Shown: one piece after another, positions 10,223 to 64,000 of the stretch | How positions within the stretch are numbered: the stretch's first letter is position 1 | Layout of the letters: every line of letters begins with the position of its first letter | Assembly (NCBI GenBank): GCA_002773395.1 | Contig: PFBI01000006.1 | Location: forward strand, 335,860 to 399,859 | From: Candidatus Kaiserbacteria bacterium CG10_big_fil_rev_8_21_14_0_10_47_16 | Lineage (GTDB): Bacteria > Patescibacteriota > Minisyncoccia > Phycocordibacterales > UBA918 | Length of the DNA stretch: 64,000 bases | Direction of reading: 5' to 3' | Made by a program: the position numbers and the translations under genes | The notes under the pieces: generated by a model | Database searches by the model: none | What the model saw: the letters and a program-made list of their open reading frames with translations, nothing else | Told to the model about the DNA's origin: nothing

Positions 10223-10372
10223 GTGCGTCAGGTTTCTAATTCACCACAAGGGTACTTCTTGTTTTCTAATTCGTTACCTCATAAGAAAACAAAGTCGCGC
10301 TGCGCTCATAAGAACCTCCTGCCCAGGCTCGCGGTTTCGGCATTAGGGATAGCCGAAACATCGCTCCGCCTC
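10223..10372 (+). repeat. Intergenic repeat family copy A, with core hairpin TTTCGGC-CATTAGGGATAG-GCCGAAA at about 10335-10358
   Basis: Shares its 5' block (GTGCGTCAGGT..CTAATTC.CCACAAGGG), the CTCGCGG block, the hairpin core and ACATCGCTCCGCCTC tail with copies at 16641-16810, 62977-63101 and 63952-64000 (reverse). Confidence 0.5.
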
Positions 10373-10408
10373 TGAAACACGACATAATCTTCCGCAGGGA
10401 AGATTATG

Positions 10409-16631: not shown

Positions 16632-16640
16632 AGTATTTTT

Positions 16641-16810
16641 GTGGCGTCAGGTCACTAATTCGCCACAAGGGACTCGGCGCAACTCACTAACTATTTTGTG
16701 GTCACAAGTTACTAAGCAAAATACGAAGCTACGCTTGTATTTTACTAAGTACTCGCGACCCCGGCTCGCCGTCTCGGCATTAGAAATAGCCGAGACATGG
16801 CTGCGCCTTG
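16641..16810 (+). repeat. Intergenic repeat family copy B, with core hairpin TCTCGGC-CATTAGAAATAG-GCCGAGA at about 16772-16795
   Basis: See copy A. Its stem differs from A by a compensatory pair (T-A to C-G). Confidence 0.5.
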
Positions 16811-16849
16811 CACAGCAGCCGGAAGCAAAGCCTTTTGCTTCCTATACGA

Positions 16850-16890: not shown

Positions 16891-16892
16891 TG

Positions 16893-19806: not shown

Positions 19807-19995
19807 CTTGATAGTATACCCGTGAAACGTTGCAGTGAACAAACCCTTGCATTTTTACACACATATGCTTTAATTGTCGCAACAAAGCGGCACTCCTCCT
19901 CTGAGAGTTCTCACAAAGAAGTAGATCAGGTGCGGGTAAGTTTTGTGGCAGATGGTGTTATATCCAATGCTCTTATTCACTAAGAACAAAGAACA

Positions 19996-21523: not shown

Positions 21524-21613
21524 ATATAGCAGTATTGTAGCACTCCATTCCACAGCAACTGCACCGCTGCACTCGCTGTGTAACGTATACTATATATGTA
21601 ACAAACACACGTC

Positions 21614-31274: not shown

Positions 31275-31277
31275 TAT

Positions 31278-32240
31278 ATGACGTACGCTACTCGTAACAT
31301 TCTGTACATAACACTCTCTGCACTCTTCACATTCTTTGTCTGTGCATCGTATGCCCTTGCTGCAGCAGATCCGTACGTACCACTCGTAGGAATCCCAGGG
31401 GTTGAGACCACGGGTAAAGCAGGTCTCACTACGTACCTCAATCAGCTCTTTATTCTCACCATTATTGGAGGGGCGCTCATCGCAGTGGTGAAGATATCAA
31501 TCGCTGGCTTTAAGTGGATGATGACTGATAGTATGTCAACCAAAGGTGACGCACGTGCAGATATTACCGGAGCGCTTCTTGGACTTGGTATTCTTCTCGC
31601 AACCTACGTGGTACTCAACACCATCAACCCTGACCTCACACGTTTGGACGTCCTTAGAAACGCTCCCGCGACATCGTATATCACACCGCAGAATTCAAAT
31701 GGCGGCACTGGCGCTGCCGCAAGCGCGGGTGTTCCACAAACAATAGACTCCGTGACCGTAAGTAGTGACAAGTCTCAAGCGGAAGCTTTGGCAGAGGCCC
31801 AAACCGCTGCCACCTCTGGTGATGCTGCAGCAGAATGCCGAGCAAAGGGGGCGACACCTCGAATTAAACCAGTGTTGGGGGATAATTACCAAGTAACTGC
31901 CAATGATATTATCTGCCCAACAGCAGCCTCCGACAGCGGGAGCAAGGGATATTCCGGACCGAATGCAAAAGCTGACGCAGACGCTTCCGTTGCTGCCTGT
32001 AACGAGGCTAATGGGAAAGGTTCCTCTGCTCAACAGCTGTGGGGAAATGAGGCCTCATACGTAGTGACGTGCGATTGGGATGTAATCGCACAAAACTTCT
32101 CAACCAAAACCACCGCTGAAGCCGCGGTCAAAACATGTACAACTGCAGGAAGGGCCGCAGAAGTTAAAACAGCTGGATTCTTTTCTTCTGGATACACGGC
32201 AAACTGTTCGAGTTTGACCGGCGAGTGGCCACCAAAATAA
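31278..32240 (+). CDS. Secreted protein whose N-terminal roughly 120 aa resemble a VirB2/TrbC-type pilin (signal peptide plus two hydrophobic helices), with a roughly 200-aa Cys-containing C-terminal extension
   Basis: Topology only: a signal peptide ending ALAAA, then hydrophobic segments LFILTIIGGALIAVV and ALLGLGILLATYVVL separated by a short polar loop. Confidence 0.3.
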   Translation: MTYATRNILYITLSALFTFFVCASYALAAADPYVPLVGIPGVETTGKAGLTTYLNQLFILTIIGGALIAVVKISIAGFKWMMTDSMSTKGDARADITGALLGLGILLATYVVLNTINPDLTRLDVLRNAPATSYITPQNSNGGTGAAASAGVPQTIDSVTVSSDKSQAEALAEAQTAATSGDAAAECRAKGATPRIKPVLGDNYQVTANDIICPTAASDSGSKGYSGPNAKADADASVAACNEANGKGSSAQQLWGNEASYVVTCDWDVIAQNFSTKTTAEAAVKTCTTAGRAAEVKTAGFFSSGYTANCSSLTGEWPPK

Positions 32241-32243
32241 TTT

Positions 32244-33473
32244 ATGAAAAAAACTCTCATCATCACTATTGGCGTTCTCATCCTCATTCTTGTCGTGGGG
32301 GTATGGGCTTACCTCTTTATGTTTGGAACACCAAAGAGCACCGGTGAAGTATTTGCAAACTTTGGACTCGGGAACAATGATGCAGTAACCACTCCAACGA
32401 CAACCAATGACGGCACCTCGCTCCCGATAAGTGATTCGGTATTTAACAATGTTATCGAAGCGCGAACATTCCAACAACTCACCACGAAGCCAGTGGCAGG
32501 AATGACCTTTGTCGGAAGTACGACTATTCGGTACATGGAGCAGGGGACAGGGTACATATTTGATATTGATACAGAAACAGGCACCGAGCGACAAGTTGTC
32601 GGCAACACCTTCACAAAGGTGCGTAGTGCGGTCTTCTCGCTCGATGGTACATCAGTTGCACTCACACGCGATGAAGGACGTGCATCACGTATCACAGTAG
32701 GAACCATTGTGGAGGGCGAGGGAAGGGACACACTCCGAAGCGTTAATCTCCCGCTTGGATCATCCGAGCCCCACTTTAGTACCACTGCCACAAGCACCTT
32801 CAACTATCTCTACACCACAGCTGCTGGTGGGACGGGCCACGCGTACAACGTACTGACAGGGAACGACAGTGTCCTCTTCACCATTCCGTTTACGTCTGCA
32901 CACATCCTTTGGGGTACCCACACCTATGTGTACACAAAACCAACCGCTGAGCTTGCGGGGTATGTGTACGAAATAAAGAACGGGTCACTTGGTTTCGTAA
33001 CGAACGGTGGTACCGGGCTTATGGCGACAGCATATGCTGGCGGAGTGATCACAACGCTCTCAAACAGTCCAACAATGTTTTCTAGCGTCAACCCACAAAG
33101 TGGTGGTGATTCTTCCACACTTCCTGTTTCAGTTATCCCTGAGAAATGTACGTTCTTGGACCGTATACCCAATGAGCTTGTCTGCGCTGTACCCGCAACT
33201 CTCCCGGATGATGCCACCTACCCGGATGATTGGTATAAGGGGGTGATTTCATTTGCTGACCGGTTTTGGTTAATTGATACAGCGAACGGAAGTGCCCGGT
33301 TAGTTGCTGATCCGACCGCTGACGCTGGTCGAGACGTTGACGTTCTCAAACTTGAGGTAAACGGTGAGGGAACACAGTTCCTCTTCATTAACAAAAATGA
33401 CAACACGCTTTGGCTTCTCAATTTGACTGACACCAGTTTTGTCCCCGAAGACACCGCTACTACTGAAAACTAA
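32244..33473 (+). CDS. Hypothetical membrane-anchored secreted protein (last gene of the operon)
   Basis: N-terminal TM and a 380-aa extracytoplasmic domain. It is followed by the hairpin AACCGGTGCCCATGGGCACCGGTT + T-run. Confidence 0.5.
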   Translation: MKKTLIITIGVLILILVVGVWAYLFMFGTPKSTGEVFANFGLGNNDAVTTPTTTNDGTSLPISDSVFNNVIEARTFQQLTTKPVAGMTFVGSTTIRYMEQGTGYIFDIDTETGTERQVVGNTFTKVRSAVFSLDGTSVALTRDEGRASRITVGTIVEGEGRDTLRSVNLPLGSSEPHFSTTATSTFNYLYTTAAGGTGHAYNVLTGNDSVLFTIPFTSAHILWGTHTYVYTKPTAELAGYVYEIKNGSLGFVTNGGTGLMATAYAGGVITTLSNSPTMFSSVNPQSGGDSSTLPVSVIPEKCTFLDRIPNELVCAVPATLPDDATYPDDWYKGVISFADRFWLIDTANGSARLVADPTADAGRDVDVLKLEVNGEGTQFLFINKNDNTLWLLNLTDTSFVPEDTATTEN

Positions 33474-33518
33474 TTGGCTACTATAAAAATAACCGGTGCC
33501 CATGGGCACCGGTTATTT

Positions 33519-34283
33519 TTATATTTGTTTTTCAAGTTCTTCTGGGAGCACATGTGGATGCCGTTTCCGAACGACGTACTCTTGTGCAATACCGAAGATG
33601 TTACTAACTGCGAAGTAGAGAGCTATAGCTGCTGAGATTGTATACCCAATCACAAAGATAATGATTGGCATACCGTACTTCATTTGTATCTGCATACTGC
33701 GACTGAAATCATCTTTGAAGTTTGGTGTCGCATCTTTTTCGCGAGGTTTCAGTGGTGGGAGTGACATCTTCATAAGGACGTACTGTGAGAGACCTGCGAT
33801 GAGCGCGATCGGGAAACTCTTTGCAGCCATATCAACAGCACCGAGAAAGAGCATCGATGCTGTTTCTGGGTTTGGAATAAAACTATAAAGGATTGCGGTG
33901 TTGATTTCAGGCAAGTGTACGCCTCCACCACGTGCTACTGAGAAGTAGAGCGCAATAATGATTGGGATTTGGATAAACAGAAGGAGAATACTTGAGAAAG
34001 GATTTACGCCCGCTTTCTTGTAAAGCTCCATCATGTGCTTCGCCAGTTCTTCGCGCTTATCTTTGTACTTCTCTTGTATCCGTTTGAGTTCCGGTTCAAT
34101 AAGTCTCATTGCACGCTGTGTATGCGCAGCCTTCATTGAGAGAGGGAGGAGTACCGTCTTTACCACAATAGTGGTGAAGACAATCGCAAGTCCTATATCT
34201 CCTCCGGGTACGACGTCAATAAAAAAGACAAGGATGTTATATACAGGATCAAAGAATATGGTGTGCCAAAGATTTAAAAACAT
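33519..34283 (-). CDS. yidC: Membrane protein insertase YidC (short form)
   Basis: YidC/Oxa1 core with 5 TM helices, downstream of rnpA as in most bacteria. Confidence 0.85.
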   Translation of the reverse strand: MFLNLWHTIFFDPVYNILVFFIDVVPGGDIGLAIVFTTIVVKTVLLPLSMKAAHTQRAMRLIEPELKRIQEKYKDKREELAKHMMELYKKAGVNPFSSILLLFIQIPIIIALYFSVARGGGVHLPEINTAILYSFIPNPETASMLFLGAVDMAAKSFPIALIAGLSQYVLMKMSLPPLKPREKDATPNFKDDFSRSMQIQMKYGMPIIIFVIGYTISAAIALYFAVSNIFGIAQEYVVRKRHPHVLPEELEKQI

Positions 34284-35012: not shown

Positions 35013-36395
35013 ATGGATTCACTTACACAATCATCTCGCAGTATCGTTCAGACACAGCAAATTGATGTTAAGCAGCTCTGGGACGACACTCTCGTCCAGA
35101 TTGAGCTTTCCATTACCGCTGCCAACTTCAAAACATGGTTTCGTGACACACATATTGTGTCTCTCGAGGACGGAACAGTGACCCTTGGCGTCCCCAGTGT
35201 CTTTGTGCGCGACTGGCTTGCTGATAAGTTCCAATCGCTCATCTTGAAAACCCTCCGTGACCTCACTCCACACGTTCGAAGTATCGAATACGCGGTGGTG
35301 CAACGCTCAAGTAAGAAGTTTGAGTCAAGTAAGAAGCAAACAGTAAACGCAACCCTGCCCCTTGAGGAGTACTACATCAACAAGAACGACAACCTCAACC
35401 CGAAGTATCTTTTCGAAACGTTTGTTGTCGGCCCATTCAACGAACTTGCGCATGCTGCTGCAAAAGCCGTGTGTGAAAAGCCGGGGATTGTGTACAACCC
35501 ACTCTTTATTTATGGAAAAACAGGCCACGGGAAGACACACCTTATCCAAGCGGTAGGGAACCAACTAAAACGAAATGGCCGAAGTGTGTTCTATGTCACC
35601 AGTGAGCGGTTTGCGGTGGATTATATGAACTCTCTCCAGAGTGGTACCGCAAATAACTTCAAAAATAAGTACCGCCAGTACGATGTGCTTATCATGGACG
35701 ACGTGCAGTTCCTCTCAAGTAAGGAAAAGACGCAGGAAGAACTCTTCCACCTCTTCAACGCAATGCACGACAACAACAAACAGATTGTGTTCTCAAGTGA
35801 TACGCACCCAGCACTACTCTCAGGGCTCCAGGAACGTCTCCAGTCACGTTTTGCACAAGGAATGATTGTAGACATCCCGCAGCCTGACAGTGAGTCTCGT
35901 GCGTCGATTATTCAATCAAAGACTGCACGCAGTAATATCACGCTTGAGAATGACGTTATCACCTTCCTTGCGACGACTATTGAGGGGAACATCCGGGAGC
36001 TTGAGGGTGCGCTCAACATTGTAATGTGCCAAACACAGGTGACTGGACGAACACTTTCACTCGATGAGGTTGTCGCGCTCATGAAAAACAGCGCGCGCCC
36101 ACGACGATCACTCGCGGTATCTGATGTTGTTGATAAAGTCGCACGATACTTTGATGTCGAACCATCTAGTATCTACGAAAAAACGCGGCGAAAGGAGATT
36201 GTGAAGCCTCGACAGCTCATTATGTACATTCTCCGAGAAGATTTTGCGGTCTCATACCCATCTATCGGCCAAAAGCTTGGTGGGCGTGACCACACAACCG
36301 TCATCCACTCATGTGAAAAGATTAAGCGTGAGGTGTTGGAAGGGAATGATGATTTGGTAGAAGAAATTGCTCAAATTCGAGCGCTTCTCCAATAA
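35013..36395 (+). CDS. dnaA: Chromosomal replication initiator protein DnaA
   Basis: AAA+ Walker A GKTGHGKTHL, sensor motifs and a C-terminal DnaA-box-binding HTH. Confidence 0.95.
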   Translation: MDSLTQSSRSIVQTQQIDVKQLWDDTLVQIELSITAANFKTWFRDTHIVSLEDGTVTLGVPSVFVRDWLADKFQSLILKTLRDLTPHVRSIEYAVVQRSSKKFESSKKQTVNATLPLEEYYINKNDNLNPKYLFETFVVGPFNELAHAAAKAVCEKPGIVYNPLFIYGKTGHGKTHLIQAVGNQLKRNGRSVFYVTSERFAVDYMNSLQSGTANNFKNKYRQYDVLIMDDVQFLSSKEKTQEELFHLFNAMHDNNKQIVFSSDTHPALLSGLQERLQSRFAQGMIVDIPQPDSESRASIIQSKTARSNITLENDVITFLATTIEGNIRELEGALNIVMCQTQVTGRTLSLDEVVALMKNSARPRRSLAVSDVVDKVARYFDVEPSSIYEKTRRKEIVKPRQLIMYILREDFAVSYPSIGQKLGGRDHTTVIHSCEKIKREVLEGNDDLVEEIAQIRALLQ

Positions 36396-36714: not shown

Positions 36715-37803
36715 ATGCACATCACGGTCGACCATATAAAACTCCAAAATCTTCTCGAAAGAGTTGCACGAGTGAGTACAAAACACCTCACACTCCCTGC
36801 GCTCCAATGTGTACTTCTTGATGTAAAAGAAAACACCCTCACTATTCGCGCAACAAATCTAGAGATAGGTATTGAAGGCACTATTGCAGTTGATGTAAAA
36901 GAAGAGGGAACAGTGAGTGTTATTGCGCAAACGTTTTTACAAATTGTTTCACTTATTTCACAAAAAGACGTAACACTTCACACAGAAGGTGATGTGCTTA
37001 TTGTGGAGACAAAAACATCACGCACAACAATCCATACAATTACTGCACAAGATTTCCCTCATATCCCAAAAGTGGAAGGGAAAGGACAGGTTATTAAAGG
37101 AACTATTTTTGCAAATGCAGTAAAGACGGCAGCGTTTGCTGCGTCACAGTCGTCTATTAAGCCAGAACTCGGCTCAGTGTATGTATTTCAAAAGAAGGAA
37201 CACACACTTACCTGTGTTGCGACAGACTCCTTCCGATTGGTAGAAAAAACAGTTTCCCAACAAAATGTTGTTCTTGAAGAGGGAATACTTATTCCCGCGA
37301 AGAATGCACTTGAACTCGCGCGACTCTGTGATTCCCAAGATGACGACCCAATGTTGTACATAACAGAGAATCAATGTGCGTTGCAGTTTGAGAACATCTA
37401 TATCACATCACGGCTTACGTCAGGAACCTTCCCTGACTACGCTCAGATCATTCCTAAGGAGTTTGTGAGCCATAGTACACTCCTTACCCAAGACCTGCAG
37501 AATGCGCTCAAGAAGACGAGTATATTCCTTAATAAGTTCATGCAGCTTACGATCGCGGCGTCAGCGCAAAATCTCACCCTTACCTCAAAAGGTGATGTAG
37601 GGACAACAACTGAGAAAACACCCGCAAGTCTTGAGGGGGATGAAATCTCCTTAAACTTCAACCAACGATATATCGCAGATATTTTAGGGTACATCACCGA
37701 CGAAAGTATAACGATTCACTTTGCAGGGACGGGGCGACCGATCATTATTGAAAGTGTGCACGATAAGTCACTCCGGTATTTGGTAATGCCAATGAATAAG
37801 TAG
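36715..37803 (+). CDS. dnaN: DNA polymerase III beta sliding clamp
   Basis: Three-domain beta-clamp length and sequence. Position after dnaA. Confidence 0.9.
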   Translation: MHITVDHIKLQNLLERVARVSTKHLTLPALQCVLLDVKENTLTIRATNLEIGIEGTIAVDVKEEGTVSVIAQTFLQIVSLISQKDVTLHTEGDVLIVETKTSRTTIHTITAQDFPHIPKVEGKGQVIKGTIFANAVKTAAFAASQSSIKPELGSVYVFQKKEHTLTCVATDSFRLVEKTVSQQNVVLEEGILIPAKNALELARLCDSQDDDPMLYITENQCALQFENIYITSRLTSGTFPDYAQIIPKEFVSHSTLLTQDLQNALKKTSIFLNKFMQLTIAASAQNLTLTSKGDVGTTTEKTPASLEGDEISLNFNQRYIADILGYITDESITIHFAGTGRPIIIESVHDKSLRYLVMPMNK

Positions 37804-41797: not shown

Positions 41798-42089
41798 AGA
41801 GGTGATCCTCGTCGTCAAATGAATCAAATTCAACATCCTCAGCATCTGCTTCGAAGAGATCCTCTTCGTCATCATCGTCATCATCGTCATCGTCTTCATC
41901 ATCGTCATCTTCGGGGTCCTCAGTATCTTTTTCAGAAAGGAGAGACTCGGGTTCCACTGGCACACCGCCCTCGAGGTCGTCATCGTCGTCCTCGAGTTCG
42001 TCTTCATCATCGAGACCGTCTCCGAGCATAGCCTCTTCGACGTCGTTCTCGTCCTCATTGATGTCATCTGTGTCAGCGAATGCGTTCAT
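41796..42089 (-). CDS. Hypothetical highly acidic (D/E-rich) low-complexity protein
   Basis: A 97 aa ORF with more than 50 percent D and E, located downstream of ruvC on the same strand. The overlapping plus-strand ORF is an H/R-rich mirror image, so coding status is uncertain. Confidence 0.35.
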   Translation of the reverse strand: MNAFADTDDINEDENDVEEAMLGDGLDDEDELEDDDDDLEGGVPVEPESLLSEKDTEDPEDDDDEDDDDDDDDDEEDLFEADAEDVEFDSFDDEDHL

Positions 42090-42646: not shown

Positions 42647-42663
42647 ACGCGTACAGAGTACCA

Positions 42664-42709
42664 TGAAAAAAGCCGACCATGACACACCGGTGTCATGGTC
42701 GGCTTTTTT
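42664..42709. terminator. Bidirectional terminator between yebC and ruvC (AGCCGACCATGACAC-ACCG-GTGTCATGGTCGGCT)
   Basis: 15-bp stem with A6 before and T6 after. Confidence 0.6.
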
Positions 42710-42713
42710 CAAG

Positions 42714-43259
42714 CTAGTCCCCCTCGGGAGTGTCGGCAGTTGTATATATTTCCTGCACGTCGTCTTGTTCTTCCAGTTTTTCAATAAGCTCAGCAAGCTT
42801 CTCGCCGTCGTTGTCCGAGAGTTCGATAGGCATGTTCGGAACGTATCGTTCAGACGTTTTTGTGAACGCCCAGAGCGATGACCCTGGTGCGCCAAGCTCG
42901 TACCCAGCCTTTGAAAAGATATGTTTAATTTCAGGAGCAGTGCGGTTGTTGTTGTCAGTCACGGCAGTAATGATCAGTGCAGTTCCGCCAGGGCCAAATG
43001 CTTCAAAGGTCACTTCCTCAAGTGCGGCACCGCCGGCACCTCCACCTTTTGCGACCGCGCGATCGATATTATCTTTTGGCATTGAATCCTTCTTCGCACG
43101 CTCGATTGCAGCGATGAGTCCTGGAGCCGACGTGTCGCCACCTGCTTTCCGTGATTCCATCGCAATGAGGGCAGCATGTTTTGAAAACACCTTACTCTTT
43201 ACCGCATCAGTTGCCGCTTTCTTGTGCTTAATTTTTGACCATTTATTATGTCCTGACAT
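42714..43259 (-). CDS. yebC: YebC/PmpR family DNA-binding transcriptional regulator
   Basis: N-terminal MSGHNKWSKIKHKK... signature of the YebC family. Conserved neighbourhood with ruv genes. Confidence 0.85.
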   Translation of the reverse strand: MSGHNKWSKIKHKKAATDAVKSKVFSKHAALIAMESRKAGGDTSAPGLIAAIERAKKDSMPKDNIDRAVAKGGGAGGAALEEVTFEAFGPGGTALIITAVTDNNNRTAPEIKHIFSKAGYELGAPGSSLWAFTKTSERYVPNMPIELSDNDGEKLAELIEKLEEQDDVQEIYTTADTPEGD

Positions 43260-51263: not shown

Positions 51264-51336
51264 CCGCCCATAGCTCAGTTGGTAGAGCAGCTCCCTTTTA
51301 AGGAGAAGGTCCTAGGTTCGAGCCCTAGTGGGCGGA
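51264..51336 (+). tRNA. tRNA-Lys (anticodon UUU)
   Basis: Acceptor CCGCCCA/TGGGCGG, D-arm GCTC-AGTTGGTA-GAGC, anticodon loop CTTTTAA giving TTT, T-arm CTAGG-TTCGAGC-CCTAG, discriminator A. Confidence 0.8.
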
Positions 51337-51342
51337 CTCGAG

Positions 51343-51383
51343 TAAAAGAAAACATCAGTCTTAAAGGCTGATGTTTTCTTTTA
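51343..51383. terminator. Bidirectional terminator after tRNA-Lys (GAAAACATCAG-TCTTAAAGG-CTGATGTTTTC)
   Basis: 11-bp stem with flanking A and T runs. Confidence 0.6.
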
Positions 51384-51534
51384 GTACACAAACTGCTTTG
51401 TGTACGACCCGAGTCCGAACCGGAATCATGCCGGAGGCAGATGAGGTGGGGTCGCAGGCCTGACGAAGGAAGGACCTGTGACGACAAAGTTATTCGTGAA
51501 CTAGATTTGGAAGCCAATCCTGTGACGACAAACA

Positions 51535-56040: not shown

Positions 56041-57072
56041 ATGGACACTGCTTCGCAACAACTGACGTCAAATTATACTTTGCTAAAAAGAGAGCGAAGA
56101 GGCATCCCACATGCGTTTGTTGTCATTACTATTATTGTTGGAAGTGTGTGGCATTTGTGGCAAGTTCAATACGCACACGTAACTCCACAACGTACAGGGG
56201 GAGAACTCGCTGCACTTTCGGGAGATCTTATTTTTCATACCGGGACACCAATTGAGCAGGCAAACGGGGCTGAGCTTTTGGGTATTGTGGTCTATTCTTC
56301 TGACACACCTGAACTCAGCACCGTACTTTCATCTGATGAAAACCTTTTTATATCAGGAGCAGCGCTCTCACCTGATCGAAGTCGCGCTGCCGTTGCTTCA
56401 AATATTTTTGGCGGGGAGACTGCAACCGTACAGGTTGTAACATTGAGTACCGGAGAACGAACGGTGATTGATGAAGGCGTCAGTGTCCTTTTTGGAACGC
56501 CGATTTGGTCAGCTGATGGAAGTACTTTTGTGTATACACGCGCAACACTCGACCCGAATGCAGACGGAGACGATGCACTCACCGCCATTACAGAAGAACA
56601 TATGGTGAAAGTGTCAGCCGTAAGTGGCAGTCGTGTGGATAGAGGCGAGGGGACACCCGTGGCGCTTTCACCAGATGGAAAGGCAATTCTCTCTCGTACT
56701 ATAAACGGCACGCTCGTATTTCAAGATCAAGAAGGTGTGATCACCGACCTTGAAGGAACAGATACAACAGAAATTCTTATGTGCGCCCAATCACTCGATG
56801 GGTCGCGCCTTATTTTGATACAGGGTGGCAAGGCGGCACTCTATACTATTGATTGGGGCACCCTCACACTCGGAGAAGGGGTTAGTATGGGTGACGGATA
56901 CACGAGTGCAACGTTCGATCAGTCAGATGCAATGGCACTCCTCCGTACTGATGGATCTGTTGATGTATTTCATATAGAAAACGAAACACCGGTCTTCGCT
57001 TCAACGTATCGCCTGACGATGGATGTGACTGCACAGACAACAACACTCCTTGATTGGATTAATCCGCAATAA
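56041..57072 (+). CDS. Membrane-anchored beta-propeller-like protein (TolB/PD40-like repeats), copy 1
   Basis: N-terminal TM (AFVVITIIVGSVW) and repeated LSPDGK / WSADGS motifs. Paralogous to 58557-59606. The track ORF starts at 55990. Confidence 0.5.
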   Translation: MDTASQQLTSNYTLLKRERRGIPHAFVVITIIVGSVWHLWQVQYAHVTPQRTGGELAALSGDLIFHTGTPIEQANGAELLGIVVYSSDTPELSTVLSSDENLFISGAALSPDRSRAAVASNIFGGETATVQVVTLSTGERTVIDEGVSVLFGTPIWSADGSTFVYTRATLDPNADGDDALTAITEEHMVKVSAVSGSRVDRGEGTPVALSPDGKAILSRTINGTLVFQDQEGVITDLEGTDTTEILMCAQSLDGSRLILIQGGKAALYTIDWGTLTLGEGVSMGDGYTSATFDQSDAMALLRTDGSVDVFHIENETPVFASTYRLTMDVTAQTTTLLDWINPQ

Positions 57073-57076
57073 CGGT

Positions 57077-58474
57077 ATGCAACATTTACGCACAAAAGTA
57101 TCGCTGCGACACCTACTCATATATATAGGAGTAGCACTTGTACTCGTGGGCTCACTCGCGTCATTTACCGATGCGAGTAGCACCACATTTCGTGCAGGAC
57201 TCCAAGCAGCTGATTCCAGCGGATGCGGAAATCGTGTCGGCACGGCGCAGTACACACCAGACAGTAGTAGTGCAGGATGGTCATCCTATGCATACGATGG
57301 AGGAGGTACGGATGTGACATGCTTTAAAGTGTATTCAGATCCAGGACCAGCGAGTATGGATGTTCGTGTGTGTGTTCAGGCGTATAACAATGGTGTGGTG
57401 TACGCAGAACGATGTACGAATTGGGCCTCTGCAGGTGGTGGATGGTCATCGTATTCTTCAGATAAAGATCTCGATGCAGCGCGCATTAAGGTGGAAAATA
57501 GAGCAATGCCGGCCAACCAAACACTTGCCAGTACATACCTTGGTATACAGCTCGCAAAGGGAACAAATGGCGCGTGTAACCAACCGGGTGCAGCGCGATA
57601 CACGTCAACAAGTGGTGGGTGGTCGAGTTGGGCACTCGACGGATCAGCAGGGGATGCAGATTGCATCCGAGTATTTCTCGGTGCAACCGTTGATACTGCA
57701 ATTTATCCAACAGTGAGTTTCTCTGCAAATCCATCAGTCATCGTGTCGGGCAACTCATCGACGCTCACATGGAGCGCAAGTAACGCGACGAGTTGTACGG
57801 GGTCTGGATTTTCTACCGGAAATGCAACGAGCGGAAATAGAAGCGTCTCGCCAGTCGTTACGACGCAATATAGCGTGCGCTGCTATTCTTCAACAGGACA
57901 CTCAACAATTAAATATGCGACCGTTACCGTAAACAGTCCGACGCCAACAGCGACACTCGAGGTTCGCAATGATACAACAGGGGGTACATATACAGGAAGC
58001 AACATCACGATTAATCAAGGAGAACAAATTAGTCTCAAGTGGAGCTCGAGTAACGCCACCAGTTGTGCAGGAAGTAATTTCTCAACGGGTGGAGCAACGA
58101 GCGGTACACAAAGTTCAATAAATGAACCGGCAGTAGGGAGTAGCGTAACGTACACCCTTATTTGTACTGGCTCAGGAGGCTCAGGAAACGACGCGCTCGT
58201 GGTGACGACAGTAGCACTTCTTCCGCCAACACTCACGTCGCCGCAAGAAGGGGAGCCGGTGCGTCGAAGTGATTCCGCAACGCTTAATTGGAACCTCAAT
58301 GGAAACAATCCTGCGCAGTGTTCATTTACGGGGACAGGAGTCCCGAGCAGTATTAGTGCGCAGACAGGGTCATTCAATATTACGGTAGAGGGAGAATCGA
58401 CAATAACACTCACGTGCCCAGGAGGGAGTGATGATGTTACGATCACCATCGTTCCACAAGTTTTCGAACAGTAA
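57077..58474 (+). CDS. Secreted protein with an N-terminal duplicated Cys/Trp-rich domain and three Ig-like repeats (LTWSASNATSC...TYTLxC), copy 1
   Basis: Signal anchor, and internal repeats read directly. Paralogous to 59603-62290. The track ORF begins at 57050. Confidence 0.55.
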   Translation: MQHLRTKVSLRHLLIYIGVALVLVGSLASFTDASSTTFRAGLQAADSSGCGNRVGTAQYTPDSSSAGWSSYAYDGGGTDVTCFKVYSDPGPASMDVRVCVQAYNNGVVYAERCTNWASAGGGWSSYSSDKDLDAARIKVENRAMPANQTLASTYLGIQLAKGTNGACNQPGAARYTSTSGGWSSWALDGSAGDADCIRVFLGATVDTAIYPTVSFSANPSVIVSGNSSTLTWSASNATSCTGSGFSTGNATSGNRSVSPVVTTQYSVRCYSSTGHSTIKYATVTVNSPTPTATLEVRNDTTGGTYTGSNITINQGEQISLKWSSSNATSCAGSNFSTGGATSGTQSSINEPAVGSSVTYTLICTGSGGSGNDALVVTTVALLPPTLTSPQEGEPVRRSDSATLNWNLNGNNPAQCSFTGTGVPSSISAQTGSFNITVEGESTITLTCPGGSDDVTITIVPQVFEQ

Positions 58475-58556
58475 TTTTTCTTGTCCACAAAAGAAGCGCA
58501 ACGGCGAAGCCGTTTTGTGTACTCATGAGTGATACACTTATTCTATATAGTCATAT

Positions 58557-59606
58557 ATGGATACCACTCTTTATACACAACCAGAGGGATATGGTGCATC
58601 AAAAAGTACCAAAGCATCAATCCCGACAGCGTTTGTTATTATTACCGTTATCGTGGGGGCAGTGTGGCACGTCTACCAACAAGGAGGACTTCAGTTTCTG
58701 CCGCTAGACCGCAATACGGCACATATTGAAAGTGAAGGGAACCTTCTTCCGGGAGATATTATGTTTTTTACAAAAACACCTCTCGAGTATCCTGATGGCA
58801 CACAAACATACGGTGTCGCGCTCCACTCGAGTGACGGTGTCGTCTCAGATGTAGTTCCTATTACACCGGAGTTACCGATGACGGATGTGAGCAGCTCGCC
58901 GAGAGGAGATATGTTGGCAGTGGTGTATAACGGCTTTGGTAGGGAACCATCACGAATTGAAATTATTACGATTGATGGTCGTGATCGACAGGTTGTTGCA
59001 GAAGCAGACGATGTATTTTTCTCTACACCGGTTTGGTCGGGTGATGGCGAGAGTATTCTGTATGCGCGTAACACTCTCGATCATTCGTTGCCGAGAGAGG
59101 ATGTGGTTGCTCACCCAAGTAAGCGAGAGCTCGTGCGTCTTTCTCTAAGGGACTCCGCTACTGCGACAATCGGAGAAGGTATTCCGATTGGGCTCTCTTA
59201 TGATGGTACACAGTCACTTCTAGTTAACTCGTCGGACGAGCTTGTTATGACAAATGCAGACGGTACACAGAAAGTACTCGCGCCGCTCGGTTCATTTGAA
59301 TATTTTGAAAGTAGTCTGTCACAAGATGGTCGTACGGTAGTGGTAGTAGTCGATGATCGCGTCCAGATCATGACACTCAATTGGAAACTGAACACGGTTG
59401 AATTCCAAACAGCGTTCAATGATGTTGTAATGAGTTCCGTGTTTGATCAAGGGGGAACTCCTCTGCTTCTTTTCCCGAACGGTACCCTCAGAACATATGC
59501 GCTCACCGATCTGGGGTGGATACCGGTTGAGAAATATACTGTGCGAGCACAGTTTCAGGATGGTGCGGTAAAGTTACTTCGTTGGAATAATACAATGTCA
59601 CTATGA
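58557..59606 (+). CDS. Membrane-anchored beta-propeller-like protein, copy 2
   Basis: Same architecture as 56041-57072 (TM AFVIITVIVGAVW; SSPRGDMLAV and WSGDGESILY repeats). Confidence 0.5.
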   Translation: MDTTLYTQPEGYGASKSTKASIPTAFVIITVIVGAVWHVYQQGGLQFLPLDRNTAHIESEGNLLPGDIMFFTKTPLEYPDGTQTYGVALHSSDGVVSDVVPITPELPMTDVSSSPRGDMLAVVYNGFGREPSRIEIITIDGRDRQVVAEADDVFFSTPVWSGDGESILYARNTLDHSLPREDVVAHPSKRELVRLSLRDSATATIGEGIPIGLSYDGTQSLLVNSSDELVMTNADGTQKVLAPLGSFEYFESSLSQDGRTVVVVVDDRVQIMTLNWKLNTVEFQTAFNDVVMSSVFDQGGTPLLLFPNGTLRTYALTDLGWIPVEKYTVRAQFQDGAVKLLRWNNTMSL

Positions 59607-62290
59607 TGTCTATGCAGCACATACAACATATTCTGAAGATAGTGTCTCTAACTCTGTTCATTTTCGGCGGATTTGTCATGCTCCCATCTCAAGTAGAGGC
59701 GAGTGGGACAACACTTGTTGCGGGACTTCGGGCAATGGACGTCAATAGCCAGTACTGTTCCCAGCGTGAAGGTTCACCAGGATATACGCCAGATACAACA
59801 AGCGCTGGCTGGTCGTCTCTCGTGCGAGACACAGGAGGGGCCGACATCAGTTGTGTAAAAGTATATGCAGACCCTGGGCCATCAACGAAAGATGTTCGAA
59901 TTTGTATACAATTAGAAAACAACGGAACGTATTTTTCTTCAGTCTGCACGAGCTGGGCCTCAGAAGGTACAAACGGTGATAGTGTGTCCTCATGGTCTGC
60001 AGGGAAAGACAATGACGGCATTCGCATTTCGGTTGAGAACAGAGATATGCCGTCAGGGCAGACGATAAGCGATGTTCAGCTTGGCATCCAGCTTTCAAAA
60101 AAGAATAGTGGTATATGTAATCAGCCTGGTACTACTCAGTACACGCCGATTGGTGGAGGGTGGTCATCTTATGCTGTTGATGGGGGCAACGGGGGATACG
60201 GAGGAGACTTTGACTGCACGAAGGTATATCTGAACTCAACCATCACCACAGCACCGAGCCCAATATATCCAACGGTTACATTGACCGCAGATCAAAACCC
60301 AATCACTACAGGGGGATCCACCACACTCCGTTGGACTTCAAGTAATGCGTCATCATGTAGCGCAATTGCAGGAAGTGGATTCTCAGTGAGTTCTACAAAC
60401 GGAAGTGACGGAATTTCACCAACCTCTTCCCAAACATATACAATTCGCTGCTATTCATCGACGGGGCACAGCTCCTCAAAGTCAGTGAATATGGTGGTGA
60501 ACGCTGCGACAGCCCCCACAGCATCACTTTCTGCGAGCAGTAACTCGGTGTCATCAGGAAGTACGGTGACACTCACGTGGTCTTCAACAAACGCAACGAG
60601 TTGTTCAGGTACGGGGAGTGGCTTCGCAACAGGCAACGCAACCAGTGGAACAGACACCGTAAACCCAACTGTCGACACTACTTACACACTCACGTGTACT
60701 GGCACTGGTGGCACAGGTACTGATTCAGAAACAATTACTATTATTGTCACAGGTCCGCCGACCGTAACACTTACCGCAACCCCTTCCACGTTTGCGTCAG
60801 GTAGCTCGTCGACACTTACGTGGTCATCGTCTGGCGCAGACACTTGTAGCTCTTACGGATCACCTAGTTTTTCAACCGGAAATGCAACGAGTGGTTCTGT
60901 TTCTATTTCTCCAACAACAAATACTACGTACACCATCCGGTGTTATAACGCCTATGGATATACCAATGCGACCGCAACAGTTACCGTAACTGCGAGCGGG
61001 GGTACAGATCTTATTTCAGCAACACCGACACTTTACTCGGGTTCACTCACTGCAGGAAGTTCGCTCAGGTTTTCAAGTGTAGTTACAAATCAAGGCACTG
61101 TGGATACGTCAACATATTTCTACACTCTCTTTCAAATTGATGTTGATAATAACGGCAGTTATGACTGGACGTACGATTCCTACAATGGAACATTAGCAGC
61201 AGCAAACTCGGCTACGCAAGTAGCAACAAGTTGGACAGCGCTAGGTGGCACGCATTCGGTACGAGCATGTGCGGATACGCATTCATCAGGAGGTTCGAGC
61301 AATAATCGTATTACTGAGAGTGATGAGACCAACAACTGTAGTGCAGCGTATACGTTTACGGTCAGTGCAGCAGACCTCGTGACTGCAACACCAACCATTT
61401 CCCCTACTTCACCTATTGCAGGGAATACGATAACGTTCTCTGCAGTGGTTACAAACCAAGGAAGTGTGGACGCAGGAAGTTCGCCAACGCTCTTCGAGCT
61501 CGATATAAATAACGACGGTAGCTACGATTGGACAGGGAACAGTGGTGTAGGTTCGATTAACGCAGGGAGTACTCGAACCTACACACCAAACGGTGCAAAC
61601 AGTACACAAACAACGTGGACCGCAACTGCGGGGACACACACCATTCGCGCCTGTGCGGATAATTATTATCCTGATGGAAATTTCTGGGATAATCGTGTGA
61701 CAGAAAGTGATGAAAATAACAACTGCGCAACGTACACGTTTACGGTTGTAAACCCTGTACCGACCGCAACGCTTGAAGTACAAAATACGACAACCGGCGG
61801 TGCGTACACAACCAATGACATCAGCATTAGTAATGATGATCAGATCGCGCTTCGGTGGTCTTCAACGAATGCAACTTCATGCTCGGGATCAAACTTCTCT
61901 GCAGGAGGAACAACGAGTGGAACGCAGAGTTCTATTACTGAGCCGAGTCCTGGAAGTAGTACAACGTACACGCTTGTGTGTACAGGTGCTGGAGGGACAG
62001 GGAGCGACCCGCTTACGGTAACAACTGCAGCACTCTCGCCACCGACACTTACCTCAACACAGTCGGCCGAACCAGTTCTCTTAGGAAGCTCCGCAACGTT
62101 CAATTGGAACCTTAACGGAAATACCCCAGCCCAGTGTTCATTTGTTGGTAGTGGCGCCCCAGGGTCTATCAGTGCCCAAACAGGCTCATTCAACACAACG
62201 GTGCAAGGAGAAACCCGAGTGACGCTGTCGTGTCCGGGAGGTAATGTGTCGGTAACCGTCCGTGTGATTCCGAAGGTGTACGAGGAATAA
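59603..62290 (+). CDS. Large secreted protein (895 aa) with the same N-terminal domain and at least six Ig-like repeats plus two internally repeated insert domains, copy 2
   Basis: Motif blocks (GWSS...DG...DC.KVY, L.W(S/T)SSNA(T/S)SC, TYT(L/I).C) are shared with 57077-58474, and the C-terminal 90 aa are nearly collinear. Confidence 0.55.
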   Translation: MMSMQHIQHILKIVSLTLFIFGGFVMLPSQVEASGTTLVAGLRAMDVNSQYCSQREGSPGYTPDTTSAGWSSLVRDTGGADISCVKVYADPGPSTKDVRICIQLENNGTYFSSVCTSWASEGTNGDSVSSWSAGKDNDGIRISVENRDMPSGQTISDVQLGIQLSKKNSGICNQPGTTQYTPIGGGWSSYAVDGGNGGYGGDFDCTKVYLNSTITTAPSPIYPTVTLTADQNPITTGGSTTLRWTSSNASSCSAIAGSGFSVSSTNGSDGISPTSSQTYTIRCYSSTGHSSSKSVNMVVNAATAPTASLSASSNSVSSGSTVTLTWSSTNATSCSGTGSGFATGNATSGTDTVNPTVDTTYTLTCTGTGGTGTDSETITIIVTGPPTVTLTATPSTFASGSSSTLTWSSSGADTCSSYGSPSFSTGNATSGSVSISPTTNTTYTIRCYNAYGYTNATATVTVTASGGTDLISATPTLYSGSLTAGSSLRFSSVVTNQGTVDTSTYFYTLFQIDVDNNGSYDWTYDSYNGTLAAANSATQVATSWTALGGTHSVRACADTHSSGGSSNNRITESDETNNCSAAYTFTVSAADLVTATPTISPTSPIAGNTITFSAVVTNQGSVDAGSSPTLFELDINNDGSYDWTGNSGVGSINAGSTRTYTPNGANSTQTTWTATAGTHTIRACADNYYPDGNFWDNRVTESDENNNCATYTFTVVNPVPTATLEVQNTTTGGAYTTNDISISNDDQIALRWSSTNATSCSGSNFSAGGTTSGTQSSITEPSPGSSTTYTLVCTGAGGTGSDPLTVTTAALSPPTLTSTQSAEPVLLGSSATFNWNLNGNTPAQCSFVGSGAPGSISAQTGSFNTTVQGETRVTLSCPGGNVSVTVRVIPKVYEE

Positions 62291-62362
62291 CATTGAGCGA
62301 GCGTATTGCACGGGCTATGGAAATGGGGTATAGTGTGGCCCACTAACGATTTATATTTTACG

Positions 62363-62626
62363 ATGGCAATTACAAAAGGAGCACAAAAAGCACACCGATC
62401 ATCGCTTAAGAAGCGTGTATTCAACACACGTCGCAAAAATGCAATGAACGATGTGGTAAAGAAAATCCGTAAGGCAGCGCTCGGCGGCGAAGCGAAGGAA
62501 GCACAAAGTATGCTTCCGGCAGCGTACAAAGCCATCGATAAGGCAGCGAAAGGTGGTTTGATTAAGCCAAACACTGCAGCACGAAAGAAGTCTCGTCTCG
62601 TTGCGGCTATCAAGCGCGCGAAGTAA
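62363..62626 (+). CDS. rpsT: 30S ribosomal protein S20
   Basis: MAITKGAQKAHRSSLKKRVFNTRRKN... is typical of S20. The track ORF begins at 62306. Confidence 0.85.
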   Translation: MAITKGAQKAHRSSLKKRVFNTRRKNAMNDVVKKIRKAALGGEAKEAQSMLPAAYKAIDKAAKGGLIKPNTAARKKSRLVAAIKRAK

Positions 62627-62642
62627 TCTTTCTGGATTTTAG

Positions 62643-62669
62643 AAAAGGGCCCCTTGGGGCCCTTTTTGT
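62643..62669 (+). terminator. Rho-independent terminator after rpsT (GGGCCCC-TTG-GGGGCCC + T5)
   Basis: GC-rich stem followed by a U-tract. Confidence 0.65.
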
Positions 62670-62976
62670 TGTGGAATTCTGCCACGTTAGTGTGCGGCAC
62701 TTGTTTCGTTGGTTCGGGGATCGACCCCCTTTCGAAGCGCTTCCGCTACACGGATTCTCTCTTCGCATGCGGCACATCCTTCGGCCTTGGCTTTGACGCG
62801 AGCTCCGCGGTCGAGCCCATTATACGAGGTAGAGATTTCTTTGTCTGTGATGCAGACGTGTGGGGCAGTGTTCCTGTCCATGAGGACACCTTTCTTTTGT
62901 GCAGGTCTCTTGTTTATAACTTTGAGTAGAGAGAGAAAGTAACAAAACCGGCGCATATGCACCGGATTTGATTGTT

Positions 62977-63101
62977 GCGGAGGGAGTGAGATTCGGCGTC
63001 CAACTCTAACTCACTACGTTCGTAAGAGTTACCTGCCCGGACTCGCGGGCTCGCGACATTAGGAATAGTCGCTCGCATCGCTCGTCTTTCGAATCTCACT
63101 C
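62977..63101 (+). repeat. Intergenic repeat family copy C, bounded by 12-nt inverted repeats GAGTGAGATTCG / CGAATCTCACTC that copy the tRNA-Ser T-arm and 3' end. The left boundary reproduces 19 nt of the tRNA-Ser 3' end.
   Basis: GCGGAGGGAGTGAGATTCG at 62977-62995 is identical to the plus-strand sequence of the tRNA-Ser 3' end at 63147-63165. TTCGAATCTCACTC at 63088-63101 is its inverse. The core hairpin GCGAC-CATTAGGAATAG-GTCGC is at about 63053-63072. Confidence 0.5.
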
Positions 63102-63107
63102 TCAATA

Positions 63108-63142
63108 AATAAAAACATCTGAAAGAATTCAGATGTTTTTAT
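63108..63142. terminator. Bidirectional terminator (AAAAACATCTGAA-AGAA-TTCAGATGTTTTT) downstream of tRNA-Ser
   Basis: Near-perfect palindrome flanked by A and T runs. Confidence 0.55.
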
Positions 63143-63147
63143 TCAAG

Positions 63148-63234
63148 CGGAGGGAGTGAGATTCGAACTCACGGTCCGGTTTCCCAGACTCCTGTTTTCA
63201 AGACAGGTGCAATCGACCACTCTGCCATCCCTCC
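63148..63234 (-). tRNA. tRNA-Ser (anticodon UGA), class II with a long variable arm
   Basis: Reverse complement GGAGGGATGGCAGAGTGGTCGATTGCACCTGTCTTGAAAACAGG...GTGAGTTCGAATCTCACTCCCTCCG. The anticodon loop CTTGAAA gives TGA. Confidence 0.8.
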
Positions 63235-63353
63235 AAGGTATGGACTTCTTGATATATTTTGTTCGTCCGTTCTTGTGCTCACTGCGTTTTGCAGTGAGAG
63301 GATAGTAACAAATTAGACCACGGTTGTACATATTCGCATGCTAGAATATACGC

Positions 63354-63824
63354 ATGGCAGAAGCAGTACAAGCAGTGACGTGGGAGGCTACACAGCACCA
63401 TCATATTGAAAAAGGACAGGACTGGTTCTGGATCCTCGGTCTTATTGCGGTCGCAGGAGCGGTAGCCGCATTCATCTTCGGCGACGTACTCTTCGGCGTC
63501 GTTATTCTACTTGGCGCGATTGTGATGGCAGTGTTTGCGCTTCACGAACCAGAGATGAAATTTTTCGCTATTACCACTCGCGGACTTCGTATTGAAGATC
63601 AACTCTATCCATACGCAACCTTGGAATCATATTATATTGATGAAGATCACCCACAGGGAGCACAGCTCCTCATTAAATCAGAACGCATGTTTATGCCACT
63701 TCTGATTATTCCTATTCCGGATGAGTACACTGAAGAAATCGATGAAATCCTCCGTGTACGACTCCTTGAGGAACATTTAGAAGAACCGCTCGCACACCGA
63801 CTACTGGAATTTTTCGGTTTTTGA
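63354..63824 (+). CDS. Hypothetical membrane protein (two TM helices; acidic C-terminus)
   Basis: ORF with an extended -10 promoter (TGcTAGAAT at 63339-63347) upstream. Confidence 0.5.
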   Translation: MAEAVQAVTWEATQHHHIEKGQDWFWILGLIAVAGAVAAFIFGDVLFGVVILLGAIVMAVFALHEPEMKFFAITTRGLRIEDQLYPYATLESYYIDEDHPQGAQLLIKSERMFMPLLIIPIPDEYTEEIDEILRVRLLEEHLEEPLAHRLLEFFGF

Positions 63825-63840
63825 TGTATTCTGTTGCCAC

Positions 63841-63912
63841 GCCTTCATAGTTTAATGGATAGAACGCAGGTTTGCGGTATCTGTAATCCAGGTTCGATTC
63901 CTGGTGAGGGCA
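63841..63912 (+). tRNA. tRNA, probably Arg (anticodon read as GCG; assignment tentative)
   Basis: Acceptor GCCTTCA/TGAGGGC with one G-U, D-arm GTTT-AATGGATA-GAAC, anticodon stem CAGGT/ATCTG with loop TTGCGGT, T-arm CCAGG-TTCGATT-CCTGG, discriminator A. The GCG anticodon is unusual, so stem registration should be checked. Confidence 0.55.
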
Positions 63913-63922
63913 CAAACGCGCG

Positions 63923-63951
63923 AAAAAGACCTCCCCTGCGGGAGGTCTTTA
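63923..63951 (+). terminator. Rho-independent terminator after the tRNA (GACCTCCC-CTGC-GGGAGGTC + TTT)
   Basis: 8-bp GC-rich stem and a U-run. Confidence 0.6.
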
Positions 63952-64000
63952 GCGTTTGTGAGCCGGAGCGATGTTTCGGCTATTCCTAATGCCGAAACCG
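63952..64000 (-). repeat. Intergenic repeat family copy D (reverse orientation), truncated by the window end. Core hairpin TTTCGGC-CATTAGGAATAG-GCCGAAA at about 63975-63998.
   Basis: The reverse complement CGGTTTCGGCATTAGGAATAGCCGAAACATCGCTCCGGCTCAC matches copy A almost exactly. Confidence 0.5.

Follow-up and report, generated by a model that had tools for sequence, protein, structure and literature searches.

A structured module of about 95 nt bordered by sense and antisense matches to the adjacent gene end behind tRNA-Ser(UGA) in a Kaiserbacteria genome

Why does the 3′ end of a tRNA gene recur, once directly and once inverted, around a short repeat element? The locus that raises this question lies in a 64,000-nt stretch of DNA from Candidatus Kaiserbacteria bacterium CG10_big_fil_rev_8_21_14_0_10_47_16 (contig PFBI01000006.1), which we call the window and whose coordinates count from its first letter. 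An earlier note on this DNA had described a duplicated 19-nt segment of tRNA-Ser(UGA) at the borders of copy C, one of four members (A–D) of a small repeat family, and had offered an excised-island scar, a tRNA-targeting miniature element with terminal inverted repeats mimicking the T-arm, or local recombination as explanations. Here, we report that copy C contains a conserved, structured core that is found behind tRNA genes and protein genes in other Patescibacteria. Our preferred reading, which in our judgement has an even chance of being correct, is that copy C belongs to a Patescibacteria-wide family of insertional, structure-constrained modules with target-derived flanks, the tRNA-Ser repeat being a target duplication and the inverted segment its antisense partner.

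The tRNA-Ser(UGA) repeats and the core of copy C

Transfer RNA genes were called by ARAGORN and by an Rfam covariance search of the window. The 19-mer GCGGAGGGAGTGAGATTCG had exactly two plus-strand matches in the window, at 62977–62995 and 63147–63165, and none in 100 dinucleotide-preserving shuffles with up to three mismatches permitted. The match at 63147–63165 is the 3′ terminus of the tRNA-Ser(UGA) gene on the minus strand, from T-loop position C56 to one base beyond the discriminator. The inverted 14-mer TTCGAATCTCACTC was located at 63088–63101 and, after a 2-nt mismatch, was extended by two further pairs to 63103. For neither the 19-nt repeat nor the inverted 14-mer is an origin by chance expected. 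The exact identity and the inverted segment are as the earlier note had described them, and the repeats do derive from the tRNA, the direct one spanning T-loop to gene end as in tRNA attachment (att) sites. Copy C likewise proved to be a genuine member of the A–D family: its core was recovered on the minus strand at 62995–63088 by a covariance model (R1, 75 bits), and copies A, B and D were located as well. Read along the minus strand, the locus comprises tRNA-Ser ending in the first repeat copy (X), a terminator-like hairpin (T1), the antisense segment (X′), the core of 94 nt, the second repeat copy (X2) and a second terminator-like hairpin (T2; Table 1).

The repeat-bounded segment of 151 nt contained no open reading frame (ORF) of at least 40 aa, and longer ORFs crossing it were unsupported. 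No promoter-like site was seen between T1 and the core of copy C; the element, if transcribed, would probably be reached by read-through from the upstream gene. When the element of copy C was folded alone, X′ and X2 formed a closing stem around the three core helices P1–P3 (−50.5 kcal/mol, z = −4.0). Folding it together with the tRNA gave pairing of X with X′ across T1, with formation of the T1 hairpin. X′ thus has two mutually exclusive partners.

To place copy C in a family, we scanned one genome per species with an exact pattern and obtained 21 loci, 20 of which belonged to metagenome-assembled genomes (MAGs) of Patescibacteria labelled Kaiserbacteria, Paceibacteria, Parcubacteria or 'Saccharibacteria'. 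The remaining locus, from Dehalococcoidia, lay inside a coding sequence and was discarded as a chance match. A metagenome scan contributed 49 further loci; loci from the MAG and metagenome scans carry L-numbers below. The model R1, trained on 19 cores, brought the total to 80 core copies from the window, Patescibacteria MAGs and metagenomes, and 71 distinct core sequences entered the covariation statistics. Across the family, the core measures about 95 nt. In one of its two domains, an internal loop of tandem G·A type, GGA/GA (or GA/GA), interrupts helix P1, beyond which comes hairpin P2, whose loop CUAUUCCUAAUG is invariant; the other is P3, a long and irregular hairpin that contains an AGGA/UGA internal loop and has the tip GAGC-GNNA-GCGA. 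Standard pairs filled 95.3% of the pair cells, compared with 68% after column shuffling and 25–40% with slid partners, and 18 of the 19 core pairs showed compensatory changes. G-U/U-G pairs outnumbered A-C/C-A pairs by 31 to 10. This excess, together with the same-sense terminator, indicates that the folded strand is probably the gene-sense strand; as far as sequence can tell, the fold is most likely that of an RNA with the sense of the upstream gene.

We considered whether the invariant P2 loop (CUAAU) might pair with AAUUAG in P3 as a pseudoknot and rejected this, since AAUUAG belongs to the P3 stem and the pairing fails in L003, L004 and L016. Assignments of the core to group II intron domain V or to a k-turn were also considered and were unsupported. 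Searches of Rfam 15 at gathering thresholds and at E ≤ 10 returned tRNAs and noise only, leaving the core unmatched. A relaxed core pattern had zero matches in viral contigs and gave no sign of a phage origin. The element was not described in the literature searched, where the nearest topic was the TIGR-Tas system, which has a different architecture (PMC12045711). The core is apparently an undescribed structured module spread across bacteria of the candidate phyla radiation (CPR).

Flanking segments and site turnover across the family

Only the internal core is shared across copies, whereas X′ and X2 differ from locus to locus and match the local gene. The layout is recurrent: a gene 3′ end (X) is followed by a hairpin or terminator, the antisense X′, the core and the direct copy X2, and this sense/antisense/body/sense order was found at copy C and at least 20 other loci. 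Among 69 non-redundant copies for which the upstream flank spanned 200 nt or more, the core was preceded by a same-sense tRNA in 30 cases, representing at least 14 anticodon species, and by a same-sense ORF end within 130 nt in 31. Three of the remaining eight stood behind a tRNA-like 3′ end, probably that of tmRNA. Judged from their C-terminal peptides, the ORFs concerned include GroEL and FtsZ-, EF-G-, DnaJ-, GreA- and L7/L12-like proteins. The notion that the repeats bear the signature of a tRNA-specific integrase, which the earlier note had entertained, does not hold up against these copies, as the same flank arrangement occurs at genes other than tRNAs (GroEL and the FtsZ-, EF-G-, DnaJ- and L7/L12-like ORFs), which is in essence an outcome that the note had itself named as refuting.

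Both flanking segments could be followed statistically. Against the upstream sequence, the 24 nt preceding the core formed duplexes with a median energy of −23.8 kcal/mol, and 47 of the 69 copies had a z of −2 or lower. Exact direct repeats of 8 nt or longer, anchored no more than 4 nt from the core 3′ end, were present in 24 of 71 copies versus 2% of shuffles, and 19 copies had repeats of 11 nt or more; a mismatch-tolerant test for X2 gave p ≤ 0.01 in 25 of 70. The direct repeat varies in length from 9 to 22 nt, occasionally taking in a whole hairpin, and is present in about one third of copies, which is also the share in which X2 begins exactly at the core 3′ edge. At tRNA-type targets, ..GTTC precedes the repeat, the junction falls in the T-loop between positions 55 and 57, and the repeat ends 0–2 nt past the discriminator. 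Such tRNA 3′-segment repeats were seen at copy C (19/19 nt) and at least 14 other tRNA loci. Protein-gene ends behave alike: the GroEL locus repeats GGGAGGCATGATGTGAC, stop codon included, a non-tRNA repeat at L062 reads TAACCGTTAAGAAAA, and at L028 and L041 an entire small terminator hairpin is duplicated on either side of the core.

In L045 and L062, X2 carries bases of X that are missing from X′, demonstrating that X2 duplicates X and ruling out that it is templated from X′. An origin of X2 as cDNA of the mature tRNA was also ruled out, since no CCA follows X2 where the gene lacks CCA. In many tRNA cases, X′ is split exactly between its anti-acceptor part (X′b) and its anti-T-stem part (X′a) by a conserved branch hairpin of the form AG-stem-CUGC-stem-CGU, the stem of which covaries. 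We examined whether X′b, hairpin and X′a might form an H/ACA-like pocket; this was rejected, as the target pairs contiguously and leaves no unpaired dinucleotide.

Comparison of related cores and of orthologous sites pointed to movement or exchange of the core. The L044 core is identical to copy C at 87 of 94 positions (93%), yet it stands behind tRNA-Tyr, and its flanks match that gene (X′ GGGAAGATTCGA, X2 CGAATCTTCCCCG). Similarly, L003 and L008 of a single MAG have cores one base apart behind tRNA-Arg and tRNA-Val, respectively, each with flanks that match its own gene, and their hairpins are unrelated. Four states of the orthologous tRNA-Arg(GCG) site were encountered: it is empty in L069, where a palindromic terminator and then the next gene come after the tRNA; in the window, the core comes straight after the hairpin (copy D); L003 and L030 have the full X′/X2 layout; and L016 and L037 have arrays of a second cargo family obeying the same X′/X2 logic. 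At tRNA-Ser(UGA), C-like cores occupy the window, L016 (two tandem units) and L046/L069, and the second cargo family occupies L003. Tandem units occur in L016 and L012. A qualitative reading furthermore indicated stacked pieces resembling the core 3′ end after copies B, D, L018 and L040, some of them interleaved with short T-loop remnants. Of the explanations in the earlier note, the small tRNA-associated element comes closest, although fixed terminal inverted repeats mimicking the T-arm have to be given up: the flanks copy the local gene, as the tRNA-Tyr locus L044 illustrates.

Several further observations concern these sites. The last 15–30 nt of the core are resembled by pieces at 16640–16699 (−) and, after copy D, at L071 3700–3760, and some stacked pieces are separated by tRNA T-loop remnants of 5–8 nt; the pieces may be what remains of elements that occupied the site before. 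In the second cargo family, GTTGCC-hairpin-GACAAC is followed by GGTGTACTGAAC and then by a small hairpin that has UGUAA in its loop. This family was found at L003 5552–5736, L016 5560–5860 and L037 2376–2520 and in L012, L039, L067, L068 and L070, has the same X′/X2 flanks both at tRNA T-loops and at the end of an EF-G-like gene, and forms arrays, which suggests that several structured cargos share one flank logic. As to which repeat copy is native, the distal copy in L039 keeps the natural stop codon and terminator, suggesting that X2 is the original gene end there; L016 and L069 suggest the opposite, with the proximal unit of tRNA and terminator being native.

Proposed insertion and the competing explanations

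The insertional reading draws directly on the covarying structure, the recurrence of X, X′, core and X2 at many genes, the precise 3′ junction and the turnover at orthologous sites; that the unit moves as DNA or cDNA, and by which route, we infer. Modules would be appended, always in the orientation of the upstream gene, immediately downstream of tRNA genes and of highly expressed protein genes. At copies that look fresh, the last 9–22 bp of the upstream gene (in tRNAs, from T-loop C56 to the gene end) are present twice, with one copy (X) inside the gene, which stays intact, and the other (X2) abutting the core 3′ edge. X′, directly 5′ of the core, can pair with X to give a long hairpin around T1 or, alternatively, with X2 to give a closing stem around the core. 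In the phage CTX-φ, integration of a single-stranded circle with a hairpin-mimic att site leaves a sense/antisense/body/sense order. By analogy, a folded single-stranded intermediate of the module might offer the target as an X:X′ duplex and recombine with the chromosomal copy, which would leave the same order as in CTX-φ integration; this is the route we prefer, though we regard even it as unlikely. About equally possible is target-primed insertion with fold-back copying of the target, from which the same order would be expected.

Several points weigh against an insertional element. Neither mechanism accounts for the re-specification of X′ at each new target, and no standard transposition or integrase mechanism explains where X′ comes from. 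Nor does either account for the fact that the hairpin lying between X and X′ varies among related copies and is not inherited together with the core. When 728 ORFs of the window and 77 loci were clustered all against all, only housekeeping families emerged near the cores, with no recurrent integrase, transposase or reverse transcriptase. Positions 62300–64000 were 100% identical in eight contigs of the same species from different samples, and no presence/absence polymorphism was found among them. About two thirds of copies have no X2. In addition, many copies occupy orthologous positions in diverged genomes, namely behind the FtsZ-like ORF (five loci), GroEL, tRNA-Ser(UGA), tRNA-Leu(GAG) and tRNA-Phe(GAA). 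Core identity at such loci exceeds that of the adjacent coding sequence (82% vs 55–62% at GroEL, 75–85% vs 53–69% at the FtsZ-like ORF), and this conservation suits a functional RNA passed on vertically at least as well as it suits a selfish element.

The alternative that survives best, possible though on the unlikely side, is a non-mobile, cis-acting RNA: a conserved, structured 3′ trailer or 3′ untranslated region element belonging to tRNAs and to highly expressed genes, with repeats that arose by local duplication and selection. X′ would be kept complementary to the 3′ end of the upstream transcript, and X2 would be an alternative partner that spares the tRNA from unfolding. Conceivably it acts as a fail-safe by turning read-through transcripts into a long duplex that RNase III or RNase J would recognise, or else as a structure for stabilisation or processing. 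Beyond the strong constraint on the core at orthologous loci, this explanation agrees with the behaviour of the FtsZ-like loci, at which synonymous changes in X are mirrored in X′ (L019, L036, L042, L006), with an orientation that is strictly that of the upstream gene and is followed by a same-sense terminator, with the lack of a linked mobility gene, and with the good folding of both alternative pairings, X:X′ and X′:X2. However, exact direct repeats of 16–22 nt with a sharp boundary at the core edge are not a product of selection, and the repeat tracts appear too short for homologous gene conversion. Nor does it account for near-identical cores with unrelated flanks at different genes, for orthologous sites that are empty or hold other cargo families, or for tandem units and truncated fragments.

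A more far-reaching idea, which we consider doubtful, is that the modules are programmable: X′ and X2 would be written from the final ~19 nt of a transcription unit, or would steer the element towards them, so that a conserved scaffold of about 95 nt could be retargeted to any tRNA or gene end without an enzyme of its own, as a novel target-templated insertion or guide-RNA-like system of CPR bacteria. The specific version in which the core is a protein-binding scaffold, with X′ (5′) and X2 (3′) guiding an RNA-guided enzyme to both strands of the gene end, is improbable. Its distant analogues would be the omega RNAs at transposon ends with flank-derived guides, IS110 bridge RNAs and TIGR tandem-spacer guides. 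Guide RNAs reportedly span a length range that includes 16–22 nt, the length of X2 at these copies; conserved parts (branch hairpin, core) alternate with copy-specific, target-matching parts in the order X′b, hairpin, X′a, core, X2; and the tandem G·A motifs of the core are typical of protein-binding RNA. In favour, too, RNA-guided systems with Nop domains are known from CPR bacteria (PMC12045711). Yet no candidate effector gene lies beside any copy, X′ and X2 can pair with one another in contrast to known dual guides, neither arrays nor box C/D-like CCA/UG anchors were seen, and no omega-RNA, HEARO or IS605-orfB family of Rfam matched.

A retroelement similar to a short interspersed nuclear element (SINE), with the core RNA copied by target-primed reverse transcription supplied in trans, has an equally slim chance of being correct. 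It would yield a precise 3′ junction, a target duplication of variable length and a variable 5′ junction that includes fold-back copies of the target. Indeed, the 3′ junction is precise and the 5′ junction heterogeneous, target duplications measure 9–22 nt, the copies are biased towards abundant transcripts and, on a qualitative reading, the stacked fragments after B, D, L018 and L040 retain the 3′ end. But no reverse transcriptase was detected in the 20 window ORFs covered by the domain scan or near any copy, and the 5′ hairpin modules with conserved CUGC loops are left unaccounted for.

Finally, a classic tRNA att-site scar, left by a tyrosine-integrase element that entered the tRNA-Ser T-loop and was later almost wholly lost, with attL and attR around the remnant, is very improbable: a direct repeat from T-loop to tRNA 3′ end, as confirmed at copy C, is the textbook identity block of T-loop-integrating elements, but the supposed remnant, like that of the excised island proposed in the earlier note, is an intact, ORF-free and deeply conserved 94-nt structure common to 80 copies, the layout is identical at protein-gene ends, one core subfamily occurs at different tRNAs with matching flanks, the antisense X′ is unexpected, and no linked integrase or fragment of one was found, the only recombinase of the window being of Xer type and some 42 kb away.

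Known systems resemble the module in part. As with T-loop att sites, the tRNA is left intact, and repeated use of one tRNA gives arrays with partial tRNA 3′ ends; in contrast to them, the module measures about 170 nt, has neither an ORF nor an integrase, occurs at protein-gene ends too, possesses the additional antisense X′ and combines one conserved cargo with many locally matching repeats. The order of sense, loop, antisense, body and sense, and the conservation of structure over sequence, recall CTX-φ/IMEX elements and integron attC sites. Those systems, however, act at a single fixed site (dif, attI) through known recombinases (XerCD, IntI), whereas the paired segment of the module differs per locus, apart from the T-loop in tRNA targets, and no recombinase is implicated. 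Repetitive extragenic palindromic (REP), BIME and REPIN sequences and miniature inverted-repeat transposable elements (MITEs) are likewise short, ORF-less, multi-copy and structured, lie in gene 3′ regions in fixed orientation and are possibly mobile and host-useful at once. The module differs from them in its two-domain core of about 95 nt with invariant loops, conserved across classes of the phylum, in its target-copied flanks in place of fixed terminal inverted repeats, and in that no RAYT-type gene was seen. With TnpB/IscB omega RNAs, IS110 bridge RNAs and TIGR tigRNAs it shares a scaffold abutted by 16–22 nt that match neighbouring DNA, but it sits at gene 3′ ends and not at transposon ends, has no adjacent effector and no Rfam match, and its two target-matching segments are complementary to each other. 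The module resembles each of these systems (tRNA att, hairpin att, REP-like and flank-guided RNAs) in one respect and departs from each in a defining feature. The element is best filed as a structured extragenic or insertional kind with an unusual target-copying architecture, neither an island scar nor a fixed-repeat MITE.

Other copies in the window and biological meaning

At all four cores of the window (A–D), the bases immediately 5′ complement those that precede the hairpin in between. Copies B, C and D each follow closely downstream of a tRNA gene, in tRNA sense: tRNA-Arg(TCG), tRNA-Ser(UGA) and tRNA-Arg(GCG), respectively. The fragment stack after copy B includes a 6–7-nt remnant of the tRNA-Arg T-loop/T-stem (GGACTCG, plus strand, 16670–16676). 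A variant module behind tRNA-Lys(UUU) contains a divergent, P3-like cargo ending ...CCTGTGACGAC, which is present twice. The density thus amounts to four copies and one variant per 64 kb, with four of the five tRNA genes of the window carrying one downstream. CCA is not encoded in any of these five genes.

Table 1. Features of copy C, of copies A, B and D and of the tRNA-Lys variant in the window
Feature	Position	Strand	Basis or context
tRNA-Ser(UGA), intact	63147..63234	-	ARAGORN; Rfam RF00005, 61.3 bits (Rfam span 63148-63234)
X, tRNA 3′ end, first direct-repeat copy	63147..63165	-	exact match
T1, A-tract/hairpin/T-tract, bidirectional terminator-like, in the gap between tRNA and element	63111..63140	.	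sequence; inverted repeat I12; predicted folds
X′, antisense to T-loop, T-stem 3′ strand and start of acceptor strand (GAGAGTGAGATTCGAA)	63088..63103	-	sequence; folds
Core of copy C, two-domain structure	62995..63088	-	R1 75 bits, E ~1e-15; covariation; fold z = -4.0
X2, second 19-nt copy of tRNA 3′ end	62977..62995	-	starts exactly at core 3′ edge
T2, intrinsic-terminator-like hairpin + TTTTGTT, tRNA sense, closes the unit	62948..62965	-	sequence
Core of copy A, internal P3 duplication	10224..10372	-	behind cytidylate-kinase-like ORF 10409-10984 (-)
Flanks of copy A	X 10415-10424; CUGC-loop hairpin 10383-10408; X′ 10372-10381		
Core of copy B, long form	16700..16809	-	82 nt downstream of tRNA-Arg(TCG) 16892-16964 (-)
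Flanks of copy B	X 16886-16896; T1 16844-16885; conserved branch hairpin 16821-16842; X′ 16809-16819		
Stacked 3′-terminal core fragments after copy B	16640..16699	-	read from sequence
Core of copy D, 5′ part	63960..64000	+	cut by window end, full copy in L071; behind tRNA-Arg(GCG) 63841-63913 (+)
Flanks of copy D	X 63911-63919; CUGC-loop hairpin 63928-63947; X′ 63952-63960		
Variant module behind tRNA-Lys(UUU) 51264-51337	51333..51530	+	read from sequence; missed by core model
Flanks of tRNA-Lys variant	X (tRNA end + trailer) 51333-51343, then terminator; CUGC-loop hairpin 51384-51405; X′ 51406-51417		

Among the 20 scanned ORFs, the nucleic-acid enzymes were a Xer-type tyrosine recombinase at 20600–21553 (−) with Phage_integrase and N-terminal SAM-like domains, an ExoIII-like EEP endonuclease alongside it at 19009–19842 (−), a CCA-adding enzyme at 17031–18503 (+), encoded divergently from the neighbouring tRNA-Arg(TCG) that carries copy B, and an RNase J-like β-CASP protein at 13938–15296; all are probably ordinary host genes. 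The genes yidC (33519–34283, −), dnaA (35013–36395, +) and dnaN (36715–37803, +) probably place the chromosomal replication origin region near 34.3–35.0 kb. Relative to this putative origin, copies A, B and D are co-directional and copy C is opposed, so that orientation is inconsistent. Perfect or near-perfect palindromic bidirectional terminators with arms of 21–30 nt were observed at 16844–16885, 33482–33523 and 42656–42719. As the stems of such terminators often take in the last bases of the upstream gene, native X:X′ stems are harder to tell apart.

Elsewhere in the window, large secreted-type proteins are encoded at 57050–62290 (+), among them an ORF of 895 aa with a CARDB domain (59603–62290), and diverged internal repeats (families D2, D3, D5 and D7) are common to 57.7–58.4 kb and 60.4–62.2 kb. 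At 41800–42080, inside an ORF, lies a repeat with a 9-nt period (CATCATCGT...), the minus strand of which encodes a long Asp/Glu-rich tract. Four ORFs of 292–409 aa, one at 21614–22492 and three consecutive at 30270–33473 (+), had no Pfam match at E ≤ 0.001.

We know of no exact precedent for a conserved core placed between sense and antisense copies of its target. If the preferred reading of copy C as an insertional module is true, Patescibacteria carry an undescribed structured element at high density, marking the 3′ ends of tRNAs and of their most highly expressed genes. It would imply either a novel means by which target sequence is copied into an insertion or a cis-acting RNA logic in which the upstream transcript is read at its 3′ end, and possibly a new retargetable insertion or guide principle. 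Whichever outcome applies, the module would add a new RNA family to the annotation of CPR genomes and would account for partial tRNA 3′ ends found in them.

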